62,971 nucleotides of DNA, taken from assembly GCA_964515925.1 (NCBI GenBank), contig CAZEYP010000007.1, positions 1 through 62,971 of the forward strand, written 5' to 3'. A program made the translations under genes and the position numbers. Numbering within the stretch: position 1 is the stretch's first letter; each line of letters opens with the position of its first letter. This DNA is from an uncultured Nitrospirota bacterium (GTDB lineage Bacteria; Nitrospirota; Thermodesulfovibrionia; Thermodesulfovibrionales; JdFR-85). Positions 1,760-49,339 of this stretch are shown here, piece after piece. A model generated the notes under the pieces. It saw only the letters and a list, made by a program, of their open reading frames with translations. It did not search any database and was not told where the DNA came from.

Positions 1760-2743
1760 ATGAATAGATTCCCAAAGAAAAAGATTCTTGTAACTGGCGG
1801 TGCCGGTTTTCTTGGCTCCCATCTTTGCGAACGGTTACTTGAAGATGGTAACGAGGTAATCTGTGTAGATAATTTTTATACTGGACAGAAGGCAAATATT
1901 GCCCATTTATTAAATAGTCCTTATTTTGAGGTGATAAGGCATGATATAACCTTTCCACTCTATGTGGAGGTTGACGAGATATACAATCTGGCATGTCCGG
2001 CATCTCCTGTGCACTATCAGTTTGATCCTGTACAGACTACAAAGACCTCTGTTCATGGCTCAATTAACATGCTTGGGCTTGCAAAGCGTCTAAAGATAAA
2101 AATATTACAGGCATCCACATCTGAGGTATATGGCGATCCGTTAGTCCATCCTCAAAGGGAAGATTATTGGGGCAATGTTAATCCAATAGGTCCCCGTTCC
2201 TGTTATGACGAGGGGAAAAGGTGCGCTGAAACCCTGTTTTTCGATTATCACAGGCAATATCGTCTCAGAATAAAGATAGCAAGAATATTCAACACCTACG
2301 GACCAAGGATGTATCCAGACGATGGAAGGGTTGTTAGCAACTTTATAATGCAGGCACTGAGAGGTGAAGATATTACTATTTATGGAGATGGTTCTCAGAC
2401 AAGGTGCTTCTGTTTTGTAGATGATATGATCGATGGTCTCATTAAATTGATGAATAGCCCCGATAGTTTTACCGGACCTGTAAATCTTGGTAATCCTGTA
2501 GAAATAACCATCCTTGAACTGGCACAGATGATTATTGAGCTTACAGGTTCAAGCTCTAAAATTGAGTTTTTACCGCTTCCTGAAAATGATCCACGACGCC
2601 GCAGACCCGATATTACTCTGGCAAGAGAAAAACTCAGGTGGGAGCCAAAAACAGACCTGAGAACAGGACTTTTAAAGACCATAGAATATTTCAGGGGGAT
2701 TATGAATGAAGAAGCTGAGAGTTCTCACTTTCAACTGGCATGA
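1760..2743 (+). CDS. uxs: UDP-glucuronic acid decarboxylase (UDP-xylose synthase), extended SDR family
   Basis: [39 protein letters not shown] motifs; ATG at 1760 preferred to TTG at 1727. Confidence 0.92.
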
Positions 2744-4883
2744 AGGATATATCTATCTGCTTGCCAAGACAGGATTTGATTTTGACGTTGTTGAAGTATG
2801 GAAAGGTGGAAGGTTTGGCTGGATAAAAGAATTTCGTCCTGTTCCAGACAATTGTAGATTAATCCCTGAGGAAGAGGCTTTAGGCAATCTAAAAAAGAAT
2901 ATATATGATGTTGCGATATGTCACAACATTTCTGACCTGCTTAAAGTGGCAGAATTTCCTCTAAAAAAGATATTAATTCATCATAATAGAATTGAGATGG
3001 AGTTTGGTATAAATGATAATGAAAAGGATAGGTTATTAGAAAAGATAAAAGAGCTTTACAGTTCGGTCCAAAACTTAATACTTGTGTTTATCTCTGAGAT
3101 GAAGATGAACAACTGGGGTATTGATGGCGAGATAATATTGCCTGGCATTGATCTCAATGAGTATTACGGATACAGAGGAGAAATAGAGAATGTTTTAAGA
3201 GTGGGTAATATGTTGAAAGAGCGTGATATTATGCTTGGCTATTCAGTACAGGAGAAGCTCCTTAAAGGTCTGCCCTCAACCATTCTGGGACTTAATCCAT
3301 CCATTGAAGAGGCAATAATTCCGAAAGACTGGAACGAATACCGTGAGTATTTAAGAACACACCGTCTTTATCTTAATACAACAATGCCACCTCTTGAGGA
3401 TGGCTATAATCTTTCAATGCTTGAGGCAATGGCTACGGGGATGCCGGTAGTTAGCATTGCCAACCCATCTTCACCAATAGAAAATGGAATAAATGGTTAC
3501 ATATCTGAGGATGGGGATTATTTACAAGAGAGGATTAAAGAGCTACTGAGTAACCCGGAAAAGGCCAGAACTCTTGGCAGTAAGGCAAGAGAAACAGTAA
3601 GAGAAATGTTCTCAATGGAAAGGTTCATTGAATCGTGGACGAAGGTTATTTATGATACTAGTATATCTGTAGCCTCAGCTGTTAAGAAAAGATCAACATG
3701 TTCAAAAAGTAGAGGTGAGGGTTTAAGGATTTTCATGACCTATACGTCAAACCCCCAGACAACTGCCTATTATCTTGAACGAGCATTGAGACAGAACCAC
3801 GATGTTATTACTTTTGGTCCATCAATAGTTGATCCCATATGGGGGTTTGACATACTGAAACAATGGAAGCTTGAACCAATAAGAGAACGAGTGAGAGAGC
3901 ATGATATTCCATATGTAACCGAGAACATAGATGAAGTAGTAGAAAGGCTACAGAAAGAGTCTCTCTGGTATCCACATCTATTTTTCTTTGTTGACACTGG
4001 TATATGGTATCCACTTAATGGAATAGAAAGAATAAATTGTATTAAGGCGTGCTACCTGATCGATGTACATTTAGACATTGAAAGGAGAATAGAAGTTGGA
4101 AAAAACTTTGATTATGTATTCATTGCACAGAGGCAATACATTGATGATTTCAAAAAGGCAGGCATTGAGAGGGTATTCTGGTTGCCGCTTGGCTGTGATC
4201 CTGAAATACATGGTAAAAGAGAGGTTTCAAAGGTGTATGATGTTGGTTTTGTAGGCAGCCTGAACAACACAAAAAGGATAAAGATGTTAGAGAAAATATC
4301 CGAAAAGTTTAATCTACATTACGAGAGGTGCTTTCTTGAAAAGATGGCCGAGGTATACTCAAAGTCGAAAATTGTATTTAATATTTCAGTGAAAAATGAT
4401 CTTAACATGAGGGTGTTTGAGGCACTATGTTCTGGGAGTATGCTTATTACAGATGAGGCGGCAGGCAGTGGACTATCAGAAATGTTCGAGGACCGAAGGC
4501 ATTTAGTAGTTTACCATGATAGTAAGGAAATGCTTGGGTTAATAGAATACTATCTCAAGCATGAAGAAGAACGAGAAGAGATTGCAAGACAGGGGCGAAA
4601 AGAGGTCCTCAGAAAGCATACCTATAAGCATCGCGTTAACAGTATGTTAGAGACCATATTCAGTAATAAAGCCTTAGAGAATGATATGGAAAGTATTGAA
4701 GAAGTTGAAAGATATCTTATGGAGCATCCAGGAGACACAAAGGCACTCCTGAGGTATGCAAAGTTAGCAGCTAATGAAGGCCAGTATGAAATAGCAAAGG
4801 AATCTATTGAAACTGTTTTAGTTTTAGAACCCAATAACAAAAGAGCTTTGCAGCTGATAGACGAGTTGACCAATAAAAGGTAA
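2706..4883 (+). CDS. Two-domain glycosyltransferase (GT4-like plus CgeB/Glyco_trans_1_2-like) with C-terminal TPR
   Basis: First half has [15 protein letters not shown]; second half has [18 protein letters not shown] and [18 protein letters not shown]. Confidence 0.8.
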
Positions 4884-26389: not shown

Positions 26390-26887
26390 ATGATGAGGTA
26401 CAAAAAGCACATTGGTTTTTTAGTCTTGTTGGCAGTATTTCTTACCTTTAATGGCAAGGGTGTACAGGCAAAGGAGGTTACATTAATGGATGTGGAAAGG
26501 GTTACTGACCTGCTTATGAGCCCGGGGTGTAATTATATGTACACACTGACCAACTGTCCATCGGCTGAGGCAGAGCAGATGAGAGAAATCGTAAGAGATA
26601 AACTGTGAAACGGTGAGTCCACCGAGGCCATACTGAATTACTTTGAAGAGATTTATGGCCCCAGGATGCTGGCACAGCCAAAGAAAAAAGGCTTTTATTT
26701 CATTGCCTGGTGGTTTCCCTATTTTTTGATATTTGATGTATTCCTCCTGATAGGTCTGATTTTATATATCTGGCAAAAAAGGGGTAAAAGTGATAGTACA
26801 ACTTCAGAGCGGTCTGAACCTGACGACAGGGATGAGGCTGAAATAGAGGCGCTCCTTGAAGAGGAGCTGAGGATGTTTAAGGGATGA
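26390..26887 (+). pseudogene. ccmH: CcmH/NrfF-like protein with an in-frame TGA
   Basis: LMSPGC...NCPSAEAEQMR; frame continues over TGA 26606-26608 (DKL*NGESTEAILNYFEEIYGPRMLAQP). Confidence 0.75.
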
Positions 26888-27448
26888 AGAACTTTCTGAG
26901 AAGCCTATTTATTATCCCTTTTTTCATACTGGTGGTTGCACTATTAACCGGAGTATTTTCAGGTAAAGAAAAAACAGCTAAAAAACACCCCCGCCCAACA
27001 ATAGGTGAGAAGGCAAGAGACTTTGCCTATCCAGACCTGAATGGAAAAAGTAAGGCTTTCGGATTACTTTGGCAAGAAAGTGATATTTTTGAATATCTGG
27101 GCAACCTGGTGTACTTCCTGTAAAAAGGAGTTACCAACCGTGCAGAGGATGTACGAGAAACTAAAAGGCGACGACCTTGTGGTTCTTGCAGTAAGCATAG
27201 ATGCACTTGGCAAGAAGGCTGTTGAGCCCTTCATGAAGAAATACGGCTCAGATTTTCCTGTTTTGCTCGACACCACAGGCTCGATTCAGCTTCTCTATGG
27301 AACCACTGGTGTGTCTGAGACCTTCATTATAGACAAAAGCGGAAAGATTGCCTATGTGGAGATTGGCGCAGGAGACTGGACCGACCCAGAAAAAGAGGCA
27401 CTGCATAGTGATTCCCTACAGGACAATGGTTATTTCACCTCAGGATGA
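26884..27448 (+). pseudogene. TlpA/ResA thiol-disulfide oxidoreductase, frameshifted
   Basis: TM anchor and ARDFAYPDLNG in one frame, NIWATWCTSC in the next; shift at A-run 27045-27049; C-terminus appears to run into the next gene near 27395. Confidence 0.8.
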
Positions 27449-29490: not shown

Positions 29491-30154
29491 ATGAAATCTA
29501 TTAAGCTAACGAGGGCACTGCTTGTAGTGCTGTTTTTTATGTTTCCACTCTGCTTCTATTTGATCTTTCAGGTGCTCCGACCGAGAGAATCATGGGCGAT
29601 GTGCAGCGGATATTTTATCTGCATGTTTCATTGGCAGTAAGCGCTTATCTTGGATTTGGTGTGCTGTTTTTTTCAAGCATACTATATCTGATTAAGAAGA
29701 GCCTTTACTGGGACAGCCTTGCAAGTTCAGCAGGTGAGGTGGGACTTCTGTTTTCTACCCTTGTTCTCATAACCGGCTCGTTATGGGCACGGCCTGTCTG
29801 GAATGTGTGGTGGACTTGGGACCCCAGGCTTGTTACCATGCTGATACTCTGGTTTATCTACATTGGCTATTTCATGATAAGAAAGGCGGTTACAGAGAAG
29901 ACCAGAAGGGCGAGGTATTCGGCAATTGTTGGAATTATCGGGTTTCTTGATGTCCCGGTGGTGAGGCTTGCCACCAGGTGGTGGAGGTCAATACACCCAC
30001 GACTGGACAGGGAATCAGGTGGCCTTGATCCACTGATGGTAAAGGTTATGATCTTCAGTCTTGTAACATTTTTGATATTTGCAGCGGTATTGATATTTGT
30101 GAGATTCAGGATTGCCTGGACTGAAGAGCGTTTGAACACAATAATCTCTCTATC
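29491..30154 (+). pseudogene. ccmC: Heme exporter CcmC, frameshifted near the 5' end; 3' end fused to a palindrome
   Basis: ATG 29491; shift near 29566-29568; QRIFYLHV, GSLWARPVWNVWWTWDPRL and WWRSIHP (WWD motif). Confidence 0.88.
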
Positions 30155-30191
30155 AGTGAACCTCCCCGACCAAAGGTCGGGGAGGTTCACT
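30155..30191. repeat. 37-bp palindrome, copy 2
   Basis: AGTGAACCTCCCCGACC-AAA-GGTCGGGGAGGTTCACT. Confidence 0.95.
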
Positions 30192-30503
30192 TTAGCAGGG
30201 TTTGGGCTTGCCTTTCTCCTTGGCATACCCTTTTCCATGTCATTCTGTCCATTCTGCGTGCCTGTGGTTCTTAGTATTCTGACAGTGGCTGCTGCCACTG
30301 GAAAACTATGGTACTCTGCCCTTCTTATGTTATTCTTCTCACTTGGCAGGGGGATTCCGCTTGTTATTGCAGGGGTATAGGTTGGTGCATTTAAAAAACT
30401 GCAAAGATTAAAAGCCTACCTCAAGTGGATTGAAAAGTTAGGAGGGGTAATACTTCTGCTAATGGGCCTTTATTATCTTTACGATGTGTTGACCCTCTAC
30501 TGA
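30192..30503 (+). pseudogene. 3' fragment of a second CcdA/DsbD-family gene with an internal TAG
   Basis: FCPFCVPVV, GRGIPL, then AGV*VGAFKK...WIEKLGGVILLLMGLYYL*; TAG at 30378-30380. Confidence 0.75.
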
Positions 30504-30562: not shown

Positions 30563-31165
30563 TCAGCTTATTCCTTGCCCCGGTCCGCCGGTAGTGTTTG
30601 ACGACTTTGAAAGCTCCTTCTCAAAGACCTCATAGAGTCTGAGTTCCATCCTGAATGTCCTGAGTTTCAGGGTCTCATCCCAGTTGTAAATCTCTGGTGG
30701 GCCGTATTTTTTGTTTTTCAGCACATACCGCTCAAGATACTCCCTGTCAGGAAAAACTATTATATATTCCTTAACGCCAAACCTCTCATAAAGGGCCTTC
30801 TTTTCCCGACGGTCCTTCAGTTCCGTGGCAGGAGAGGTTATCTCTATTACAAGATCAGGGGCGCCCTGAATATTGTCTTCTGTGATCTTCTTCTTTGAGC
30901 AGACAACGAACAGATCAGGCTGAACCACATTGAACTCATCAAGCACCACATCCGTGGGGGCATAAAAGGGAATACAACTTTTTAAGGCATCCTTGTTGTT
31001 TACAAATACCTCGGTTAGTCTCCACAAAATCCTCTGGTGTCTGGTCTTAGGTGCAGGTGACATAGAGTAGGCCTGCCCATCAATCAACTCCCACCTCTCA
31101 TCATCAGGCCATCTGAGGTAGTCCTGGTAGGTGAACCGCCTCTGTTTCTTAAGTGCAAGTGGTAT
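30563..31165 (-). CDS. Uma2/DUF820 endonuclease-fold protein, copy 1 (start codon position reads ATA; possibly inactive)
   Basis: WELIDG...MSPAP, VVQPDL, PDLVIEITSP; ATA at 31163-31165 aligns with the ATG of copy 2. Confidence 0.8.
   Translation of the reverse strand: MPLALKKQRRFTYQDYLRWPDDERWELIDGQAYSMSPAPKTRHQRILWRLTEVFVNNKDALKSCIPFYAPTDVVLDEFNVVQPDLFVVCSKKKITEDNIQGAPDLVIEITSPATELKDRREKKALYERFGVKEYIIVFPDREYLERYVLKNKKYGPPEIYNWDETLKLRTFRMELRLYEVFEKELSKSSNTTGGPGQGIS
30614..31158. repeat. 545-bp direct repeat, copy 1 (Uma2 coding sequence)
   Basis: Appears identical by eye to 34683-35227 (offset 4069). Confidence 0.92.
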
Positions 31166-31213: not shown

Positions 31214-31264
31214 TTGACAAATGATATTTTAAACGATATAATATGAGTAATTACTCATATGAGT
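31214..31264 (+). promoter_or_regulatory. Consensus sigma-70 promoter with an overlapping palindromic operator
   Basis: TTGACA(31214)-17-TATAAT(31237); perfect palindrome ATATGAGTAATTACTCATAT at 31241-31260 and overlapping ACTCATATGAGT at 31253-31264. Confidence 0.85.
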
Positions 31265-31278
31265 TAAGGCTAATATGT

Positions 31279-31611
31279 ATGAATCAGTGGATTGAAGACA
31301 CGGCAAGACTTTTAAAGGTACTTGGAGAGCCCAACCGACTTGGCATCCTGTTTGCCATTGGTAAGGAGTCAAGGTCGGTTACAGAGATAATCCGCATCAC
31401 AGGGCTTTCGCAGACCCTTGTGTCTTTTCATCTCAGGGCATTGAGGCGAGCAGATATCGTAAGAACAAGACGGGATGGGCCTTTTATTTACTATAGCCTG
31501 AAAAACCCACATCTTATAGACATACTTATGGAAATCTCAGAGTTAATAGGAAAGACAATGCCCGTAGAGACTGTTTCGCCAGAGATGGTAAATAGTATAA
31601 AGAGGAGGTAG
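31279..31611 (+). CDS. ArsR/SmtB-family repressor
   Basis: LKVLGEPNRLGIL, SQTLVSFHLRAL and RRDG.FIYYSL; ATG 31279 preferred because ATG 31243 precedes the predicted start site. Confidence 0.9.
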   Translation: MNQWIEDTARLLKVLGEPNRLGILFAIGKESRSVTEIIRITGLSQTLVSFHLRALRRADIVRTRRDGPFIYYSLKNPHLIDILMEISELIGKTMPVETVSPEMVNSIKRR

Positions 31612-31614
31612 CCA

Positions 31615-32097
31615 ATGAAAAAAGAATTACTGTTAATAGGAGTATTTATTGTGTTGTTATTTACCGGATGTAACGAAAGCAGTGCTAAAGGTGTCCTGAA
31701 AGATTATACCTTTGTCACCGTAGATGGTAAGAGTATAAACTTTAACAATCTCAAAGGGGCTCTTATAGTAGTAATCAATATAGGTGGGCATTGGTGAAGG
31801 ATATGCAAAAGAGAAGCTCCCGAACTTCAGAGGGCCTATGCGAAATTCAAAGACAGAGGTGTAATCTTTATTGGTGCCTTTGTCCTTGGAAACAACCAGC
31901 AGATAAAAAAGTTTCGGGAGCGATATCATCTGACCTTTCCAGTTGGGAAGGAAAATGGTCTGTCAAAAAAACTTCACATTATTGCACTTCCAACTACAGT
32001 ATTTATAGGAAAAGACGGAAGAATAAAAAAACGCCATATTGGAGAGATTACATTTGAAGATTTAGATAGAGAAATTAAGAAGTTACTTAAACAATAA
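31615..32097 (+). CDS. Putative selenoprotein: TlpA/AhpC-TSA-like lipoprotein with UxxC
   Basis: Lipobox FTGC; reading through TGA 31795-31797 gives HW-U-RIC-KREAPEL...ALPTTVFIGKDG, a complete 160-aa thioredoxin fold. Confidence 0.85.
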
Positions 32098-32112
32098 AAG
32101 GAGGTTTAAAAA

Positions 32113-32382
32113 ATGAAGATGTTTGAGGAAATGATGAAGAAAATAATGGGCGGGATGATGAAGCCAGAGGACATGCCCGAGATGATGACTGCTATGATGG
32201 ACAGGTGTTTCAGTGAGATGAAACCCAATGACAAAATGGCATTTATGGAGAACATGATGCCCAGATGTATGAATATGATGTTTAAGGATATGTCTGTAAA
32301 GGAAAGGAAAAGATTTGCAGAAAAGATGCTTAACAGGATGTTTGGAGAGTTAAAAAAACATGCGGAAGAGGATACTCAATGA
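32113..32382 (+). CDS. Very Met-rich small protein with two Cys
   Basis: GGAGG SD; about a quarter of residues are Met. Confidence 0.75.
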   Translation: MKMFEEMMKKIMGGMMKPEDMPEMMTAMMDRCFSEMKPNDKMAFMENMMPRCMNMMFKDMSVKERKRFAEKMLNRMFGELKKHAEEDTQ

Positions 32383-32395
32383 GGAGGTGATAAAG

Positions 32396-32581
32396 GTGAG
32401 TGGTGAGACAATAAGGGATGTCATTGCCAGTCTTGAGCCTTCTGTTAAAAAGGAACTGCTTAACAGCCTTGTTAGTATGCTAATTGAGGAACTTACAGAG
32501 GCTGAAAAAAAGGAACTCCTTCAGAGGGTTGCTGCAGGGGGCAGAAAAGGCCGAGAGATGATAGAGATGGTTGAGCATTGA
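32396..32581 (+). CDS. Small helical hypothetical protein
   Basis: GAGGAGG before GTG 32396; position within the operon. Confidence 0.65.
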   Translation: MSGETIRDVIASLEPSVKKELLNSLVSMLIEELTEAEKKELLQRVAAGGRKGREMIEMVEH

Positions 32582-32605
32582 ATAAAGGAATGCACGGATT
32601 CAGGT

Positions 32606-32875
32606 GTGAATCCGCTTGAGATGAGCAAGGAACTTATTTCTGCATTCAGTCATTCCTATGAACTGGCAACATACTCAACACCTGAATTGAGGACATTGTT
32701 TAATGACTGGCTTTCAGAGATTGAGCAGGAGGTGGTCTCCTTTCTTAAAGACAGACACAGGGTTGACCCTGACGAGGTGGCAGGACATCTGAGGATAGGC
32801 CGTGAGAGTGCAATATTCATCCTGAGCAAACTTGCCAGGGAAGGAAAGATAAACATGCAGGCATATGGGTTTTAA
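32606..32875 (+). CDS. Hypothetical protein with C-terminal winged-helix-like segment
   Basis: TPELRTLFNDWL and A.HLRIGRESAIFILSKLAREGKI. Confidence 0.65.
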   Translation: MNPLEMSKELISAFSHSYELATYSTPELRTLFNDWLSEIEQEVVSFLKDRHRVDPDEVAGHLRIGRESAIFILSKLAREGKINMQAYGF

Positions 32876-32899: not shown

Positions 32900-33190
32900 A
32901 TGAAACTATTTGATTTCAAAAGTGGTGCCATTGCTTCTGCACTGGCATATGCATTTTGTTGACAGCTACCGCTGGTCCTGGCCAGTGTGGGGCTGGGGAG
33001 TTTTACATTTTCCTTATGGTTTATAAAGTACAGATGGCTCTTTCTTGTAATTACTTTTGTATTTCTTGCTATTGCGTGGTATATGACCTTCAAAGGTCAG
33101 AGGAAACCGGGCAAATGGAGCAAAGCAATACTTTATGGTACCACAGTGTTGAGTATTACACTTGTGCTTTACAGTTTTATAACCACATAA
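32900..33190 (+). CDS. Putative selenoprotein: MerT/MerF-like transporter with Cys-Sec in place of Cys-Cys
   Basis: GGAGG and ATG 32900; AYAFC-U(32960-32962)-QLPLVLASVGLG aligns with the MerT CC..PLVL..LG motif; three TM helices; hairpin directly 3' of the TGA. Confidence 0.8.
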
Positions 33191-33201: not shown

Positions 33202-34638
33202 ATGTCGGACAAAGACAGAAAAACAAAACCTGACAGTTGCTGACCCTCAACCGACTCTGCCAGTGGGCAGGACAGGATAAGTCAGGAGTCAGGAGTCAGA
33301 AGTCAGGAGGGGGATGCAGAAAAGGGCGCTCCAAAGGCCGAGCACTGCATGGTCTGTGGTGAGAAGCTGCAGTATCTTGAGACCTCACGCAGTTTGAAGT
33401 GTCTATACTGCGGCAAGGAAGAGGAAGGTCACATTACCTGCCCTAAGGGACACTACATCTGTGAGCACTGCCACAACCAGGACGCAATGCGGATGATAGA
33501 GGATGTGGCCTTCAGCACTAAATCTCAAAATCCAGTTGAGATAGCCGAGCTGATGCTCTCCTTTCCAGGGCTTCCAATGCTTGGCTGCCATCATGCCTAC
33601 ATCGCAGGTGGTGCACTCATGGCGGTAATAAAAAACTCTGGCACAAGAAAGATAACCAATGATGATATAAAGGAGGTCTTTAAGAGGACTAAACGCCAGG
33701 CACATGGTGGATACTGCGGCCTTACCGGGGTTTGCGGCATTGCCCCTGCAATAGGAGCGGTTTTTGCTGTATTGACTGGGTCAAAGTGTGGCACAGACAG
33801 AGAGCAGCGGATTACAATGGAGGCAGTCACGAGGGTTACAAGGGCGATAACAGAACTAACAGGGCCCAGTTGCTGCAAGGCATATGTGAAAAGCTCCCTT
33901 GAGGTGGCCACAGAATCTCTCAGGGAATCCCTTGGAATTGAACTTCCCACGCAGAGGGTGTCGGCCTGTCTTCATTCCGAGAAACATCCCCACGGCTGCC
34001 GGGAGATGAAATGTCCATACTTTGGCAGTAGTGGTTCAGATAATGACAGGCTCGAAAGTCAGGTTGAAAACCCGCTTCCGTCACTCAATGATTTTTCCTC
34101 TAAGGATGAGACAATGGATTTTCTCATTAAAAAGGCCCTTGAACTCGGTGCTGAGAGGGCAAAGTTAATTGACACAAATACAGTGGTTGTTCAAGAGTGG
34201 GTTAGATGGAAATGCCGTTACGGCTGTCCTCTTTATGGAAAAGATGCCTATCATCCTCCCTGTGCTCCTGATGCAGAGACCACCCATAGGATGCTTTCTG
34301 AATACAAAAGAGCCATACTGATGAACTGCCCAAAGGGAAAGCCTCTTACAGAGGTGGCGGTAAGACTTGAAGGTATTGCCTACAGGATGGGATTTTATAA
34401 GGCATTTGCGATGACAGCACTTTCCTCAGGACCTCCTGGCATGACCTGACCTTCGGGTGAGGAGGATGCCCGGGAGGACTCCGAGAGAGAGGCACAGAAG
34501 GAGATGAGGATCAGACCCCTTATGGAGGCATGTGGTATTGATGTCTTTAAGACCGCCCGTGCAAATGGCTTTGAGATTGACACCAGGAAAGAAACTTACG
34601 GCAGGTGGAACTACTTTGCCCTCTTACTGATTGAGTAA
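33202..34638 (+). CDS. Putative double-Sec protein: N-terminal CU, DUF5714 and DUF2284 (478 aa)
   Basis: AGGAGG and ATG 33202; in-frame TGAs at 33241-33243 (SC-U-P) and 34447-34449 (GMT-U-P); readthrough restores the DUF2284 tail RPLMEACGIDVF. Confidence 0.8.
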
Positions 34639-35240
34639 TTCCCTGAACTTTTTCCGGGTTCTTTATCATTGCCCTCTTTTGACTCCTTCTCAAAGACCTC
34701 ATAGAGTCTGAGTTCCATCCTGAATGTCCTGAGTTTCAGGGTCTCATCCCAGTTGTAAATCTCTGGTGGGCCGTATTTTTTGTTTTTCAGCACATACCGC
34801 TCAAGATACTCCCTGTCAGGAAAAACTATTATATATTCCTTAACGCCAAACCTCTCATAAAGGGCCTTCTTTTCCCGACGGTCCTTCAGTTCCGTGGCAG
34901 GAGAGGTTATCTCTATTACAAGATCAGGGGCGCCCTGAATATTGTCTTCTGTGATCTTCTTCTTTGAGCAGACAACGAACAGATCAGGCTGAACCACATT
35001 GAACTCATCAAGCACCACATCCGTGGGGGCATAAAAGGGAATACAACTTTTTAAGGCATCCTTGTTGTTTACAAATACCTCGGTTAGTCTCCACAAAATC
35101 CTCTGGTGTCTGGTCTTAGGTGCAGGTGACATAGAGTAGGCCTGCCCATCAATCAACTCCCACCTCTCATCATCAGGCCATCTGAGGTAGTCCTGGTAGG
35201 TGAACCGCCTCTGTTTCTTAAGTGCAACCGGCATGTTCAA
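34611..35240 (-). CDS. Uma2/DUF820 endonuclease-fold protein, copy 2
   Basis: Same motifs as copy 1; intact ATG. Confidence 0.88.
   Translation of the reverse strand: MNMPVALKKQRRFTYQDYLRWPDDERWELIDGQAYSMSPAPKTRHQRILWRLTEVFVNNKDALKSCIPFYAPTDVVLDEFNVVQPDLFVVCSKKKITEDNIQGAPDLVIEITSPATELKDRREKKALYERFGVKEYIIVFPDREYLERYVLKNKKYGPPEIYNWDETLKLRTFRMELRLYEVFEKESKEGNDKEPGKSSGNYSISKRAK
34683..35227. repeat. 545-bp direct repeat, copy 2
   Basis: Matches 30614-31158. Confidence 0.92.
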
Positions 35241-39960: not shown

Positions 39961-41025
39961 TTGAAGGTTCTTGAGAGCATAGAAAAGAGCCTGTTTGTTC
40001 TTCATACAGGTCAGGTTACCTGCCATGACACAAATGGTAATCAAATCCCCTGTGCGGGGACAGGTCAGGATGGAGAATATAGAACCGGCATCAAATGGCC
40101 TGAGCCTCGTTTCCAGGTCTCAGGCAACACAGTGCTTGACCGGCTTACAGGTCTTATATGGACCAGGAATGCAAATCCTTTAGAACTACCGCTTACATGG
40201 CAGGAGGCCTTTGAATACATTGAGAAGATGAACAGAGAGAGAGCCTTTGGTTATTCAGACTGGCGTATGCCCAACAGAAGAGAACTCAGAAGTCTCCTCA
40301 GTTATCAAACGAAAAAGCCGGCATTACCGGAGAGTCACCCCTTTGAAAATGTCTTCAGTGGATGGTACTGGACATCTACCACAGCTGCAATCAATCCAGC
40401 CTATGCCTGGTATATCCATATGGAAGGTGCCAGGATGTTTTATGGTGAAAAGAGGCAGTTTTTTCTCCTCTGGCCTGTAAGAGGCAGTGGCTCTTCGGTG
40501 CTTGCTGCCACAGGACAAAGAGGATGTTTTGATCAGGATGGGCGTCAGGTTCCCTGTTCTGGTACCGGGCAGGATGGGGAGTTTCAATATGGAATTCACT
40601 GGCCTGTACCAAGATTTCAGGTGCACGGTGAGGTGGTGCTTGACAGACTAACCAACCTGTGCTGGCTTAAAAGGGCAGACCTTGCAGGAAAGACGGTTAC
40701 ATGGCAGGAGGCATTATTGATTGTTAAAGAACTGAATGCAGGCAGGGGAACTATTACATTATGGCGTCTGCCAAATATAAATGAACTTGAAACACTTATT
40801 GACTGCAGCACCCACAGCCCGGCCCTGCCCGAAGGACATCCCTTTGAAGATGTTCGGGAGGGATACTGGTCGTCAACCACCAGCATGTATGAGCCCGACT
40901 GGGCCTGGGCTTTGTATCTTAAAAAGGGTGCCCTTGGAGTGGGACAGAAAAGAGGTACCTATTTTCATGTGTGGCCGGTTTGCAATGCTTCAGATATGTT
41001 AGAAAAAAGGATATTAGATGGATAA
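39961..41025 (+). CDS. Tandem DUF1566 (Lcl) domain protein
   Basis: Two repeats of D.LT.L.W, WR.P...EL and YWSSTT, each preceded by TGQ..C.D..G..C.GTGQDGE. Confidence 0.85.
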   Translation: MKVLESIEKSLFVLHTGQVTCHDTNGNQIPCAGTGQDGEYRTGIKWPEPRFQVSGNTVLDRLTGLIWTRNANPLELPLTWQEAFEYIEKMNRERAFGYSDWRMPNRRELRSLLSYQTKKPALPESHPFENVFSGWYWTSTTAAINPAYAWYIHMEGARMFYGEKRQFFLLWPVRGSGSSVLAATGQRGCFDQDGRQVPCSGTGQDGEFQYGIHWPVPRFQVHGEVVLDRLTNLCWLKRADLAGKTVTWQEALLIVKELNAGRGTITLWRLPNINELETLIDCSTHSPALPEGHPFEDVREGYWSSTTSMYEPDWAWALYLKKGALGVGQKRGTYFHVWPVCNASDMLEKRILDG

Positions 41026-41890
41026 AATTAATGAAAATAAGACATACAATCATGCTACAGACCCTGTATGTGGTATGAGGGTAAACAGTGATAGTCCTTT
41101 TTCCTTTTTGTACAACCAGAAGGAATACAGATTTTGCTCTGATAAATGCAGAGACCTGTTTCAGCAGGAGCCGGAACTTTTTCTTTCTATGCAGAACAAA
41201 AGGCAGATGCTTTTTGAACAGGAGCGTACCAGGAGTTTGAAAAAGATGGCTGACCAGATAACCCATGAGATTAGAAATCCCCTTACCTCAATAGGTGGTT
41301 TTGCAAGAAGAATATTGAAGAACCTTCCAGAGGACGCACCTGACAGGGAGTACATGAAGAGGGTTATTGAGGATGTAGAAAGGCTTGAACAGATGGTAAA
41401 CAGGATTGTCAGATTTGAATCCGAGCAGTTGATATTGGAGAAAACAGACCTGAATGCACTCATTAAGGAAATAGTTGATATGTTTGATGTGCTATTGAGG
41501 GGAAACAGGATTACTCTCAAACTGTCGCTGGAGGAACTGCCCGAGATTTTTTTGGATAGGGCAAAGATGAAGTCTGCACTGTCAAATATAGTAAAAAATG
41601 CCATTGAGGCAATGGAAGGTGCGAAGAGGATACTGACTATTTCTACCCATCTGGTGGGTGATGAGGTTTTAATTTCTATATCGGATACTGGCAAGGGAAT
41701 ACCCACGGATAAGATCAAATACATCTTTGATCCCTTCTTTACCTCAAAGATATACGGTCCGGGCCTGGGCCTTTCCTTTGTAAAAGAAGTTTTGCAGGCT
41801 CATAAAGGTAGAATAGAGGTGCAAAGCACCCCGGGCAGGGGAACAACCTTTAAGATTAAAATTCCTGCAGGAAGGGAGGCCAGAAGATGA
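41018..41890 (+). CDS. Soluble histidine kinase with N-terminal YHS domain
   Basis: TDPVCGM...FCSDKC; HEIRNPL, NAIEAM, DTGKGI, FDPFFTSK and GPGLGL. Confidence 0.88.
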   Translation: MDKINENKTYNHATDPVCGMRVNSDSPFSFLYNQKEYRFCSDKCRDLFQQEPELFLSMQNKRQMLFEQERTRSLKKMADQITHEIRNPLTSIGGFARRILKNLPEDAPDREYMKRVIEDVERLEQMVNRIVRFESEQLILEKTDLNALIKEIVDMFDVLLRGNRITLKLSLEELPEIFLDRAKMKSALSNIVKNAIEAMEGAKRILTISTHLVGDEVLISISDTGKGIPTDKIKYIFDPFFTSKIYGPGLGLSFVKEVLQAHKGRIEVQSTPGRGTTFKIKIPAGREARR

Positions 41891-42849
41891 AAAAGATTAT
41901 TATTCATATTATCCTTCTATTTGCTGCTCTTTGTTTTCTGCCCCTTACTGTTCAGGCTGAAGTGATATTTGTTAATAACCGCGACTCTGGAGAGCTCTCT
42001 GTAATTAATCCTGAAAAAGCAAAAACAGTGAAACGAACAGTAGTGGGCAGAAAGTCCACTTATGTTGCAGTTAGCCCTGACGGCAGGTTTGCCTTTTCTG
42101 TCTCAACCGGTGAAAGGAAACTCTATGTAATAGATGCCTCTGAATTCATGGTTATAAAGACACTGTCTCTTTCAGATGCTCCAAAGGGTGTTGGGGTGAG
42201 TCCTGACAGCAAATTTGTTTATGTGGTAAACGAAGCAAAGAGGGCAAGCAATCTATATGTGTTTAAAACAGGAGTATGGGAAAGGGTTAAAACTATTAAG
42301 GTTGGGAGCATGCCTCATAATATTGTGTTCAACCCTGTAAAGCCATGTGCCTATGTTACCAATGGCGCCTCTAAAAGTATAAGCGTAATAGATACAAAAG
42401 AGCAAAAAGTGGTGGATGAGATAAAGATTCCAGGCTCAGGGGTGCCTCATAACCTTGATATAACGCCTGATGGTAGATTCCTTGTTGTAACACTGAAAAA
42501 GACCGATGAAGTAGCCGTGATAGATTTAAATAACAGAGCGGTCATCAAAAAGATAAGGGTATCAAAGGGGCATCATGGAGTGGCAATAAGTCCTGATGGC
42601 AGGTGGGCTTATGTTTCGGGAGTTGGCTCGGATGTGATAACCGTGATAGATACATCAGACTGGCAGATAAGAAAGACCATCAGGGTAGGTAATGGCCCTC
42701 ATGGTGTAAGGTTCTCAGGAGACGGCAGAAGAGCCTATGTTGCAGTGAGTAAGGAGGACAAGATGGTGGTGATTGATACAGAGGGCCATCGGGTAATAAA
42801 GGAGATTAGTTCACCGGGGTTTCCATTCTGGATAGCAATAAAGAGATAA
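41887..42849 (+). CDS. YncE/YVTN beta-propeller protein
   Basis: Signal peptide; repeated PH..A.SPDG..AYV blades. Confidence 0.85.
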   Translation: MKKIIIHIILLFAALCFLPLTVQAEVIFVNNRDSGELSVINPEKAKTVKRTVVGRKSTYVAVSPDGRFAFSVSTGERKLYVIDASEFMVIKTLSLSDAPKGVGVSPDSKFVYVVNEAKRASNLYVFKTGVWERVKTIKVGSMPHNIVFNPVKPCAYVTNGASKSISVIDTKEQKVVDEIKIPGSGVPHNLDITPDGRFLVVTLKKTDEVAVIDLNNRAVIKKIRVSKGHHGVAISPDGRWAYVSGVGSDVITVIDTSDWQIRKTIRVGNGPHGVRFSGDGRRAYVAVSKEDKMVVIDTEGHRVIKEISSPGFPFWIAIKR

Positions 42850-47686: not shown

Positions 47687-49339
47687 TTGAGAAGCGATGA
47701 CATCAAAAAGGGTCTGGAGCGAGTGCCACACAGGGCACTACTTTATGCAACAGGAATACCACCCACAGAGATGAACAAGCCTTTCATCGGAGTGGCAACC
47801 AGCTTTACAGACATCATCCCGGGCCACATTGGTATGAGAGACCTTGAGAGGTTTATCGAAAAGGGTATCCATGCCGGTGGTGGTTATCCCTTTTTCTTTG
47901 GTGTGCCTGGCATCTGTGATGGAATTGCCATGGGACACAGTGGTATGCACTACTCACTTCCCTCAAGAGAGCTAATTGCAGATATGGTTGAGACCATAGC
48001 AGAGGCACACAAGTTCGATGGATTAGTGCTTTTAACCAACTGTGACAAGATTACCCCTGGAATGCTGATGGCTGCTGGAAGGGTGAATATTCCCACAATC
48101 ATCGTAACTGCAGGTCCAATGCATTCTGGACATCTAAAGGGCAAGAGGCTGAGTCTTGTTAACGACACCTTTGAGGCTGTGGGTAAATACAAGAAGGGCT
48201 TGATAGACGACAGAGAGCTTTCCTCTCTTGAGATGTGTGCCTGTCCAGGGGCGGGCTCCTGTCAGGGAATGTACACTGCAAACACCATGGCCTGTGTAAC
48301 CGAGGCACTTGGTATGAGCCTTCCCTATTGTGCAACTGCCCTTGCCATTGATTCAGAAAAGAGAAGGATAGCCTTTGAAAGCGGCCGCAGGGTGGTTGAA
48401 CTGGTGAAAAAAGGCATCACTCCAAGAAAGATAATGACCCGTAAGGCCTTCGAAAACGCCATTATGGTTGACATGGCACTTGGTGGTTCAACTAACACGG
48501 TGCTTCACATTCCAGCAATTGCAAAGGATGCAGGGGTGAGGCTTCCACTTGAGGTGTTTGATGAACTTAGCAAAAGGACACCCCATCTATGTAACATGCT
48601 CCCTGGCGGTGTGCATTACATGGAAGACCTGCATCACGCAGGTGGAGTGCCTGCTTTGCTTAAAAGGCTGAAGGAACAGATACACAACACAGCCACTGTA
48701 AGTGGCATCAGAACACACAGGATAGCTGATAGGGCTGAGGTCTTTGATGATGAGGTAATAAGGCCACTTAACAGGGCTCATCACAGAGAAGGTGGTATTG
48801 CCATCCTTCGTGGAAACCTTGCACCTGATGGAGCAGTGGTAAAGCAGTCTGCAGTTAGTAAGAATATGATGCGTTTTGAGGGCACGTCAAAGGTCTTTGA
48901 TTCAGAAGAGGAGGGCATGAAGGCAATACTTGCAGGGAAGATAAAACCAGGTGATGTTGTGGTTATCAGATACGAGGGGCCAAAGGGAGGCCCTGGAATG
49001 CGTGAGATGCTCTCTCCCACTGCAACCATTGCAGGAATGGGGCTCAGTGATTCGGTTGCTCTGATTACAGATGGAAGATTCTCTGGCGGCACAAGAGGCC
49101 CCTGTATCGGGCACATATCTCCAGAGGCCATGGAGGGTGGCCCTATTGCAATAATAAAGGATGGTGACAGGATAAGGATAGACATTCCAAAGAGAAGGCT
49201 TGACCTCTTACTGTCAGAGGAGGAGATAAAGGACAGACTCAGAAGGTGGAAGGCACCAAGACCAAAGATAACAAAGGGCTATCTTGCAAGGTATTCACAG
49301 ATGGTAAGCTCTGCTTCATCAGGGGCAGTGATGAAGTAG
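47687..49339 (+). CDS. ilvD: Dihydroxy-acid dehydratase
   Basis: [28 protein letters not shown] and TDGRFSG. Confidence 0.97.

Follow-up and report, generated by a model that had tools for sequence, protein, structure and literature searches.

A predicted exported UxxC thioredoxin-fold selenoprotein in a putative metal-handling operon of a Nitrospirota bacterium

Exported thioredoxin-fold proteins in which selenocysteine (Sec, U) opens a UxxC motif are an established class of predicted selenoproteins. A 2026 review of the prokaryotic selenoproteome (PMC13188914) names several predicted members, among them a 'Prx-like thiol:disulfide oxidoreductase' (PF00578), a 'Redoxin family protein' (PF08534), a 'Thiol:disulfide interchange protein', a UGC-type TlpA family, HUIPC and SaoT. 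MbdU, TsoA, TsoB and TsoC are listed there too, as are mercuric transport proteins that contain Sec. Here we describe a gene, called TrxU in this text, from a stretch of 62,971 nucleotides (the window; contig CAZEYP010000007.1 of assembly GCA_964515925.1) of an uncultured Nitrospirota bacterium. We read its product as an exported TlpA-like selenoprotein that belongs to an operon with an ArsR-type regulator, a TsoA-like and a MerT-like selenoprotein and MbdU, and we put the probability of this reading at about 0.8. Given the class, the gene itself is unsurprising. Its interest lies in what it would add to a so far unexplained system of MbdU, TsoA-like and Cys-Sec MerT-like proteins: a periplasmic component, and with it a mer-like relay model.

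How does TrxU compare with the described families? With the PF00578 and PF08534 UxxC selenoproteins of the review it shares the Pfam families, the UxxC motif and the exported redox type, a likeness drawn by family and motif only; its clade carries a signature of its own, [GAS][HP]W-U-x-x-C-K/R-x-E-A-P-x-L-Q, and no dedicated NCBIfam model matched it. It fits the described categories but no named model, and we therefore regard it as a new member, with its own clade, of a known class. The UGC-containing TlpA/ResA-like WAxxUGC proteins (NF041054), HUIPC (NF047660) and SaoT (NF040730) are likewise thioredoxin-fold selenoproteins, some of them encoded in multi-selenoprotein operons; unlike the WAxxUGC and HUIPC models, TrxU has the motif HWURIC. 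TrxU reaches 19 bits on NF041054, whose cut-off is 300, and has no match at E <= 0.01 to NF047660 or NF040730; no selenoprotein-specific NCBIfam model matched. Because no such model captures the clade and its entries in the protein collection that was searched are C-terminal fragments, annotation pipelines miss its members.

The Sec codon and its conservation

TrxU is one continuous frame with a single in-frame TGA, at codon 61, which falls in the active-site motif NIGGHW-U61-RIC64-KREAPELQ. The 99 codons that follow the TGA contain no in-frame ATG, GTG or TTG, so that they could be translated by read-through of the TGA alone; a separate C-terminal gene is ruled out on the same ground. The first-pass annotation of this DNA had seen in the frame a lipobox, the U-R-I-C motif and a cis-Pro in an ALPTT loop, and all of them were located there, as C19, U61/C64 and P126. 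It had further held that the open reading frame track wrongly split one gene into pieces of 60 and 88 residues. The 60-residue piece is indeed the true N-terminal part, whereas the 88-residue frame (31791-32057) proved to be a different frame altogether. At the N-terminus, MKKELLLIGVFIVLLFTG leads up to C19, with a KK n-region, a 12-residue h-region and the lipobox LFTG directly before the cysteine; Cys19 is the predicted lipidated N-terminus of the protein. Export signals recur in the relatives (L numbers denote their loci), as an LFIGC lipobox in L022 and as AYA or AFA type-I cleavage sites in others.

The genome (72 contigs, 2.3 Mb, completeness 99.5%) has the means to insert Sec. It encodes tRNA-Sec with anticodon tca on contig C4 (C4:79205-79302) and gives profile matches to SelA (629 bits), SelB (382 bits) and SelD (337 bits), and selD itself carries one TGA. 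TGA is otherwise an ordinary stop that terminates 471 of the 1282 long open reading frames, which rules out a global reassignment under code 4 or 25.

What has become of this codon in the relatives of TrxU? A search of protein collections returned close relatives as C-terminal fragments of 95 residues only. On the contigs of these fragments, the missing N-terminal half was found in the same frame, with a TGA at exactly the aligned codon. With the copies added by scans of genomes and metagenomes, the TGA is kept at the same codon in more than 20 relatives. They include L022, a 96%-identical copy in a Nitrospirae metagenome-assembled genome (MAG), L023, a 45%-identical copy in a Nitrospira MAG, ten copies from metagenomes at 43-48% (L090-L099), the metagenomic loci L017-L021, the distant member L105 and six further copies from the same order (G087, G111, G063, G094, G115 and G018). 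In a 30-sequence alignment every Cys homologue has the first Cys of its WCxxC in the Sec column, so that the TGA falls on the nucleophilic position; the C/U61 column is invariant, as is E67, and W60 is at least 90% conserved. The nearest Cys form, L179 (SWCPPCKREAPELEKAY), is 40% identical. Fourteen of the TGA-keeping relatives were placed in a maximum-likelihood tree, in which the Sec forms make up one clade (support 100/99) with the Cys forms outside it, and TrxU and L022 are sister to the other Sec forms at about 1.2 substitutions per site. The most conserved blocks of the family, TFPVG, PTTVFI and GRI, all lie 3' of the UGA. Retention of a TGA at the catalytic position over such a distance, with conserved blocks downstream of it, argues for translation with Sec and would otherwise be very hard to explain. 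Together with the Sec machinery and the lipobox or signal peptides, these results uphold the earlier proposal of a periplasm-facing selenoenzyme.

Variants of the motif occur within the clade. L017-L021 form a nested subclade that lacks the resolving Cys and has gained a Cys four residues 5' of the Sec (KIC-SPW-U-SSS, KIC-SAS-U-SSS), and L094 has U-PRY in place of U-x-x-C. Their sequences mark them as one-Sec variants that are derived within the family. Since such orthologues dispense with the resolving Cys, we argue that the conserved requirement is a single selenolate.

An AlphaFold2 model of TrxU, built on the homologue alignment, has a mean predicted local distance difference test (pLDDT) score of 85.5, with low confidence in the signal peptide and linker only, and sets U61 at the N-terminus of helix 62-81. 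The modelled fold, with an N-terminal beta-hairpin and a central insert, superposes on ResA. Foldseek matched the model to 4nmu, 1su9 and 2f9s at E ~1e-12 and a root-mean-square deviation of 1.4 Å, and the best matches from Foldseek and phmmer are ResA, StoA and other TlpA-like extracytoplasmic reductases, at 26-34% identity. TrxU is thus like the ResA/StoA/TlpA/CcmG proteins (B. subtilis ResA, 1su9; B. anthracis, 4nmu) in its fold, in the active site on helix 1, in the Glu (E67, the counterpart of ResA Glu80) and in the cis-Pro loop, where the cis conformation of P126 is expected from the family. Like them, it is also membrane-anchored and exported, as predicted from its sequence. It is unlike them in having Sec as its nucleophile, in its lack of linkage to cytochrome c or spore-cortex genes and in that some of its orthologues do without the resolving Cys; the best NCBIfam model, the ResA subfamily, scores 88 bits, under its cut-off of 170.

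Could TrxU instead be a peroxidase? The main functional rival to our reading is an exported selenol peroxidase that detoxifies periplasmic peroxides in the manner of peroxiredoxins (Prx) or glutathione peroxidases (GPx) and is not a metal- or disulfide-exchange protein. Among the Pfam models AhpC-TSA (PF00578; 61.1 bits, cut-off 26) scores highest, followed by Redoxin (PF08534; 50.2 bits, cut-off 26.6), and GSHPx scores on TrxU too; GPx structures are found among the fold matches, and the clade members with USSS or UPRY would suit one-Sec peroxidase chemistry. However, in sequence as in structure, ResA, StoA and TlpA are consistently the better matches, and the U stands in a WCxxC context, where Prx has PxxxTxxC and GPx has UGxT. 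There is also no reductant partner or peroxide regulator nearby, the neighbours being of metal-handling type. We consider a peroxidase improbable and continue to read TrxU as a TlpA-like protein.

The selenoprotein operon and a possible relay

TrxU is the second of the conserved genes of its operon, which run in the order ArsR/TsoR-like regulator, TrxU, TsoA-like, MerT-like with a Cys-Sec pair, and MbdU. The four selenoprotein genes of the operon together contain five UGA codons. Among the products of the operon, none matched TsoB or TsoC in NCBIfam, and the Met-rich protein encoded between TrxU and the TsoA-like gene was absent from L017, L018, L090 and L094, the relatives whose loci were read throughout. 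The coordinates of all features are given in the table.

Features of the TrxU operon in the window, with the basis of each call
Feature	Position	Strand	Basis or remark
Consensus sigma-70-type promoter, TTGACA-17-TATAAT	31214..31242	+	12/12; 5' of operon
ArsR/SmtB-type metalloregulator	31243..31611	+	Pfam HTH_5 47.5 bits; NCBIfam HTH_metalloreg 78 bits (cut-off 55)
Shine-Dalgarno sequence GAGGAGGT	31601..31608	+	6 nt 5' of TrxU ATG (31615); read from sequence
TrxU, predicted TlpA/ResA-like thioredoxin-fold selenoprotein	31615..32097	+	160 codons + TAA
Predicted signal peptide with lipobox L-F-T-G-C19	31615..31671	+	Cys19 codon TGT 31669-31671; fits PROSITE PS51257-type rules
Sec61, in-frame TGA	31795..31797	+	aligns with nucleophilic first Cys of WCxxC; invariant column
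Cys64 (TGC), resolving Cys of U-R-I-C	31804..31806	+	sequence, alignment
Best model-compatible hairpin, GCUCCC-GAACUUCA-GAGGGC	31816..31835	+	starts 18 nt past UGA; 8-nt loop, first base G
cis-Pro126 (CCA), ALPTT loop facing active site	31990..31992	+	column at least 90% conserved; fold model
Met-rich 89-aa protein (26 Met, two Cys)	32113..32382	+	no family match; between TrxU and TsoA-like genes
TsoA-like selenoprotein, H-U-IKE-C	32360..32875	+	TGA 32579-32581; canonical SECIS CGGAUUCA-GGUG-UGAAUCCG
MerT-like membrane protein, Cys-Sec pair AFC-U-QLPLVL	32900..33190	+	TGA 32960-32962; merT_RC607
MbdU, metal-binding double selenoprotein	33202..34638	+	TGAs 33241-33243 and 34447-34449; NF045648 734 bits (cut-off 600)

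The neighbourhood recurs in relatives, repeatedly with its genes in the same order. We scanned 25 of their loci by motif, some of them duplicates or short contigs, and found an ArsR motif upstream in 15, a TsoA-like motif downstream in 11, and the Cys-Sec MerT-like protein and MbdU in 7 each. In several relatives, a small membrane protein with WxxPxWGPMY and no family stands between ArsR and TrxU (L090 897-1100, L094 2727-2993); it does not occur in the window.

The Tso/MbdU neighbourhoods of Haft & Tolstoy 2025, as far as they are conveyed by PMC13188914, resemble this operon in their ArsR/TsoR-like regulator, a TsoA-like UxxxC protein, MbdU and several UGAs. To the extent that this account covers them, they differ from it in that here the TsoR and TsoA matches fall below the cut-offs, TsoB and TsoC are unmatched, and a free-standing TrxU and a MerT-like Cys-Sec protein are present instead. 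The TrxU clade may already have been noted in the original description of those neighbourhoods.

What might such an operon do? From its genes, it would serve metal handling. TrxU would be exported by the Sec pathway, cleaved by signal peptidase II and lipidated at Cys19, to become a membrane-anchored, periplasm-facing thiol/selenol oxidoreductase with W-U61-R-I-C64 opposite cis-Pro126. Outside the cytoplasm, the U61/C64 pair could bind, reduce or exchange with a thiophilic substrate, by selenenylsulfide formation or by ligand chelation; that substrate may be the Cys-Sec pair of the MerT-like protein or else a soft metal(loid), for instance a species of Hg or As. In a selenolate relay, TrxU would be the periplasmic first station, from which the substrate would pass to the MerT-like Cys-Sec pair and on to cytoplasmic MbdU and the TsoA-like protein. 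Given a MerT-type first helix with vicinal Cys and Sec, and Sec partners in the cytoplasm, a ligand or redox relay for a soft metal(loid) is the best-supported model for the operon. That TrxU functions in such a relay from periplasm to cytoplasm, in a way functionally like MerP-MerT-MerA, is a proposal we make tentatively and by analogy, at somewhat less than even odds.

The analogy has both likenesses and differences. As in MerP-MerT-MerA, a membrane protein of MerT type, with its two ligands vicinal, comes after an exported protein with two ligands; in L022 the TrxU operon has a MerA-like gene beside it, and regulation is of ArsR type, as in some mer operons. Unlike MerP, which has the ferredoxin-like heavy-metal-associated (HMA) fold, TrxU has a thioredoxin fold, and every station here carries Sec; the analogy is functional only.

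The hairpin at the Sec61 codon and other counterevidence

Several observations weigh against our reading. The function that we propose is one suggested by gene neighbourhood only, and the neighbours themselves are not close to the named families: the regulator is closest to TsoR (NF045707) at 81 bits, below the cut-off of 115, the TsoA-like protein reaches 103 bits on NF045695 (cut-off 170) and the MerT-like protein 43 bits on merT_RC607 (cut-off 130). L023 and L095 are well flanked and yet have no partner genes. The seven differences between TrxU and L022, five non-synonymous and two synonymous, are too few to speak for purifying selection. Because the USSS members (L017-L021) and the UPRY member (L094) lack the resolving Cys, the clade as a whole cannot depend on a classical dithiol-type reductase cycle. 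To these points are added the results on the Sec insertion sequence (SECIS). The best hairpin at the TrxU site, with -3.5 kcal/mol, is indistinguishable from chance, as 22% of random coding sites fold at least as well. The 81 nt of 31790-31870 have a minimum free energy of -9.5 kcal/mol with z = +1.9, and so fold worse than shuffles. RNAalifold returned an empty consensus structure for 15 orthologues and, for 10 UxxC members, only a structure of 4+2 bp at -2.1 kcal/mol; pair counts for the hairpin at 31816-31835 gave no covariation above shuffles. The remark in the first-pass annotation that no convincing SECIS hairpin follows this TGA is thereby borne out.

The hairpin of -3.5 kcal/mol comes from the bacterial SECIS model, which asks for a 3-9-nt apical loop carrying G in its opening two positions, an upper stem of 4-16 bp and a loop located 16-37 nt after the UGA (PMC13188914). 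We applied its constraints to the TrxU site, to 18 other putative Sec sites of the genome and to random coding positions. The other sites came from a combined codon-score and hairpin scan for TGAs that lie in frame and have coding signal on either side, which recovered FdhA, SelD, Prx, HesB-like and DsbA-like proteins, two MvhD-like proteins, the operon neighbours of TrxU and others. Fourteen of the 18 fold at -7.5 kcal/mol or below (down to -16), a level reached by 3.8% of background sites. Most have a stem of 6-11 bp that starts 9-15 nt past the UGA and a loop with G first (GGUCU, GGA, GGUG, GUC, GGC). An Rfam E-value scan of the operon gave no SECIS and no other RNA family.

Relatives of TrxU present a mixed picture. 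L090 has a strong version of the same hairpin, at -11.2 kcal/mol. A clean stem of 7 bp, capped by a GGC loop and centred on the Glu-Ala codons, is found in L095 and L175, and TrxU lacks the bases that form it. The candidate elements are non-homologous within the clade, and most members are without a convincing hairpin. Conservation of synonymous sites past the UGA (Leu CUU 13/13, GAG 13/14, UAU 12/13) looked suggestive and was discarded, as other columns of the gene are equally biased. At the second UGA of MbdU (34447-34449), the best model-compatible hairpin has -2.0 kcal/mol; a weak hairpin is thus not unique to TrxU within the operon.

The main rival that the weak SECIS raises is that the UGA is simply a stop: TrxU would be a decaying or silent copy whose SECIS has degenerated, and its product a lipopeptide of 60 residues. 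Its SECIS candidate is among the weakest in the genome, the strong GGC-loop hairpins of L095 and L175 have no counterpart in its sequence, and the five-to-two non-synonymous excess against L022 could reflect relaxed constraint. Against this, the 99 codons past the UGA are intact in frame and keep every residue that is invariant in the family, and the gene is 98% identical to that of L022, as opposed to 94% in the flanks. Most orthologues are equally weak in hairpin and have nonetheless kept the UGA across some 1.2 substitutions per site, and MbdU, a curated selenoprotein of the same operon, is equally exposed at its second UGA. We judge a stop at codon 61 very improbable. As the comparative evidence speaks strongly for Sec, the weak SECIS lowers our confidence in Sec translation only slightly, and UGA61 would then be decoded in a SelB-dependent way despite a weak and non-canonical hairpin.

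Would this imply a different kind of element? Since a recognisable hairpin is missing in most of the clade and at the second UGA of MbdU, one may think of a non-canonical SECIS class or a relaxed dependence on SECIS. The bolder combination, in which such decoding goes together with an all-selenolate relay, that is, a Sec-based counterpart of MerP-MerT-MerA, appears to us unlikely, though worth stating. As a well-supported Sec site without a recognisable SECIS, in a genome most of whose other sites are canonical, TrxU offers a test case for how strict recognition by SelB is.

Possible mobility, the ccm cluster and further Sec candidates

The operon lies between direct repeats (30614-30913 and 34683-34982) that are 100% identical over at least 300 nt and are located inside two Uma2-family genes, and it is absent from three genomes of the same genus. 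Identical bracketing repeats and this absence suggest that it is an accessory and perhaps mobile cassette. In L022, the sister MAG, a gene for a MerA-like flavoprotein (2122-3493; TIGR02053, 357 + 109 bits, split by a frame change) is found directly 5' of ArsR-TrxU. The stretch that L022 shares with the window is 31237-32294 only, and its DNA upstream of ArsR is unrelated. In the genome of the window, contig C18 carries an intact MerA (40822-42213) and, after it, another in-frame TGA candidate at C18:42686.

Does TrxU stand in for another TlpA? The first-pass annotation had suggested that it might replace the frameshifted WCTSC TlpA of the window, and in the fuller form of this idea TrxU would reduce apocytochrome c for System I maturation. 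The ccm-linked TlpA (WATWCTSC, 26884-27448) is indeed spread over two frames, which meet at an A5 run near 27045-27049, and has a Ser at the cis-Pro position (GVSETFII). TrxU lies 4 kb from this ccm cluster, shares the fold family of CcmG, TlpA and ResA, and has the invariant Glu three residues past the resolving Cys. The comparison with relatives nevertheless speaks against replacement. The synteny with ccm is kept in no relative's locus, where the partners are ArsR, TsoA-like, MerT-like Cys-Sec and MbdU; in the sister MAG the unrelated upstream DNA gives the ArsR-TrxU pair a MerA-like gene as its neighbour, and the operon has identical repeats on both sides and no counterpart in the three same-genus genomes. 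Moreover, three or four uninterrupted Cys-type TlpA/ResA paralogues exist elsewhere in the genome (contigs C24, C31, C2 and C3), and the NCBIfam equivalog models for DsbE and TlpA score far below their cut-offs on TrxU (28 against 123 bits and 24 against 230 bits). The ccm cluster of the window itself looks degraded or mis-assembled, for the ccmC frame (29592-30380) is fused to a DsbD/CcdA fragment. As genes beyond tlpA look broken, there is possibly no pathway left to serve. We thus find no support for a stand-in role, to which we attach hardly any probability, and retain the reading of TrxU as a member of the ArsR/MbdU operon.

The genome holds further Sec candidates. On the plus strand of contig C3 (~47689-49134), a full-length frame for an RtcB-type RNA ligase (482 aa) has a TGA in place of the Cys of GGVGYDIN-C-GVR, which we take to be the metal-binding Cys of RtcB, and a strong hairpin lies 3' of this TGA. 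The 2026 review of the prokaryotic selenoproteome (PMC13188914) makes no mention of RtcB as a selenoprotein. A second TlpA-like Sec lipoprotein candidate, with an LVLAC lipobox and the motif FTSW-U-VRC, is encoded on the minus strand of contig C8 (24369-23890), and this paralogue has a plausible SECIS, CCGCU-CGUGA-AGCGG, about 21 nt past its UGA.

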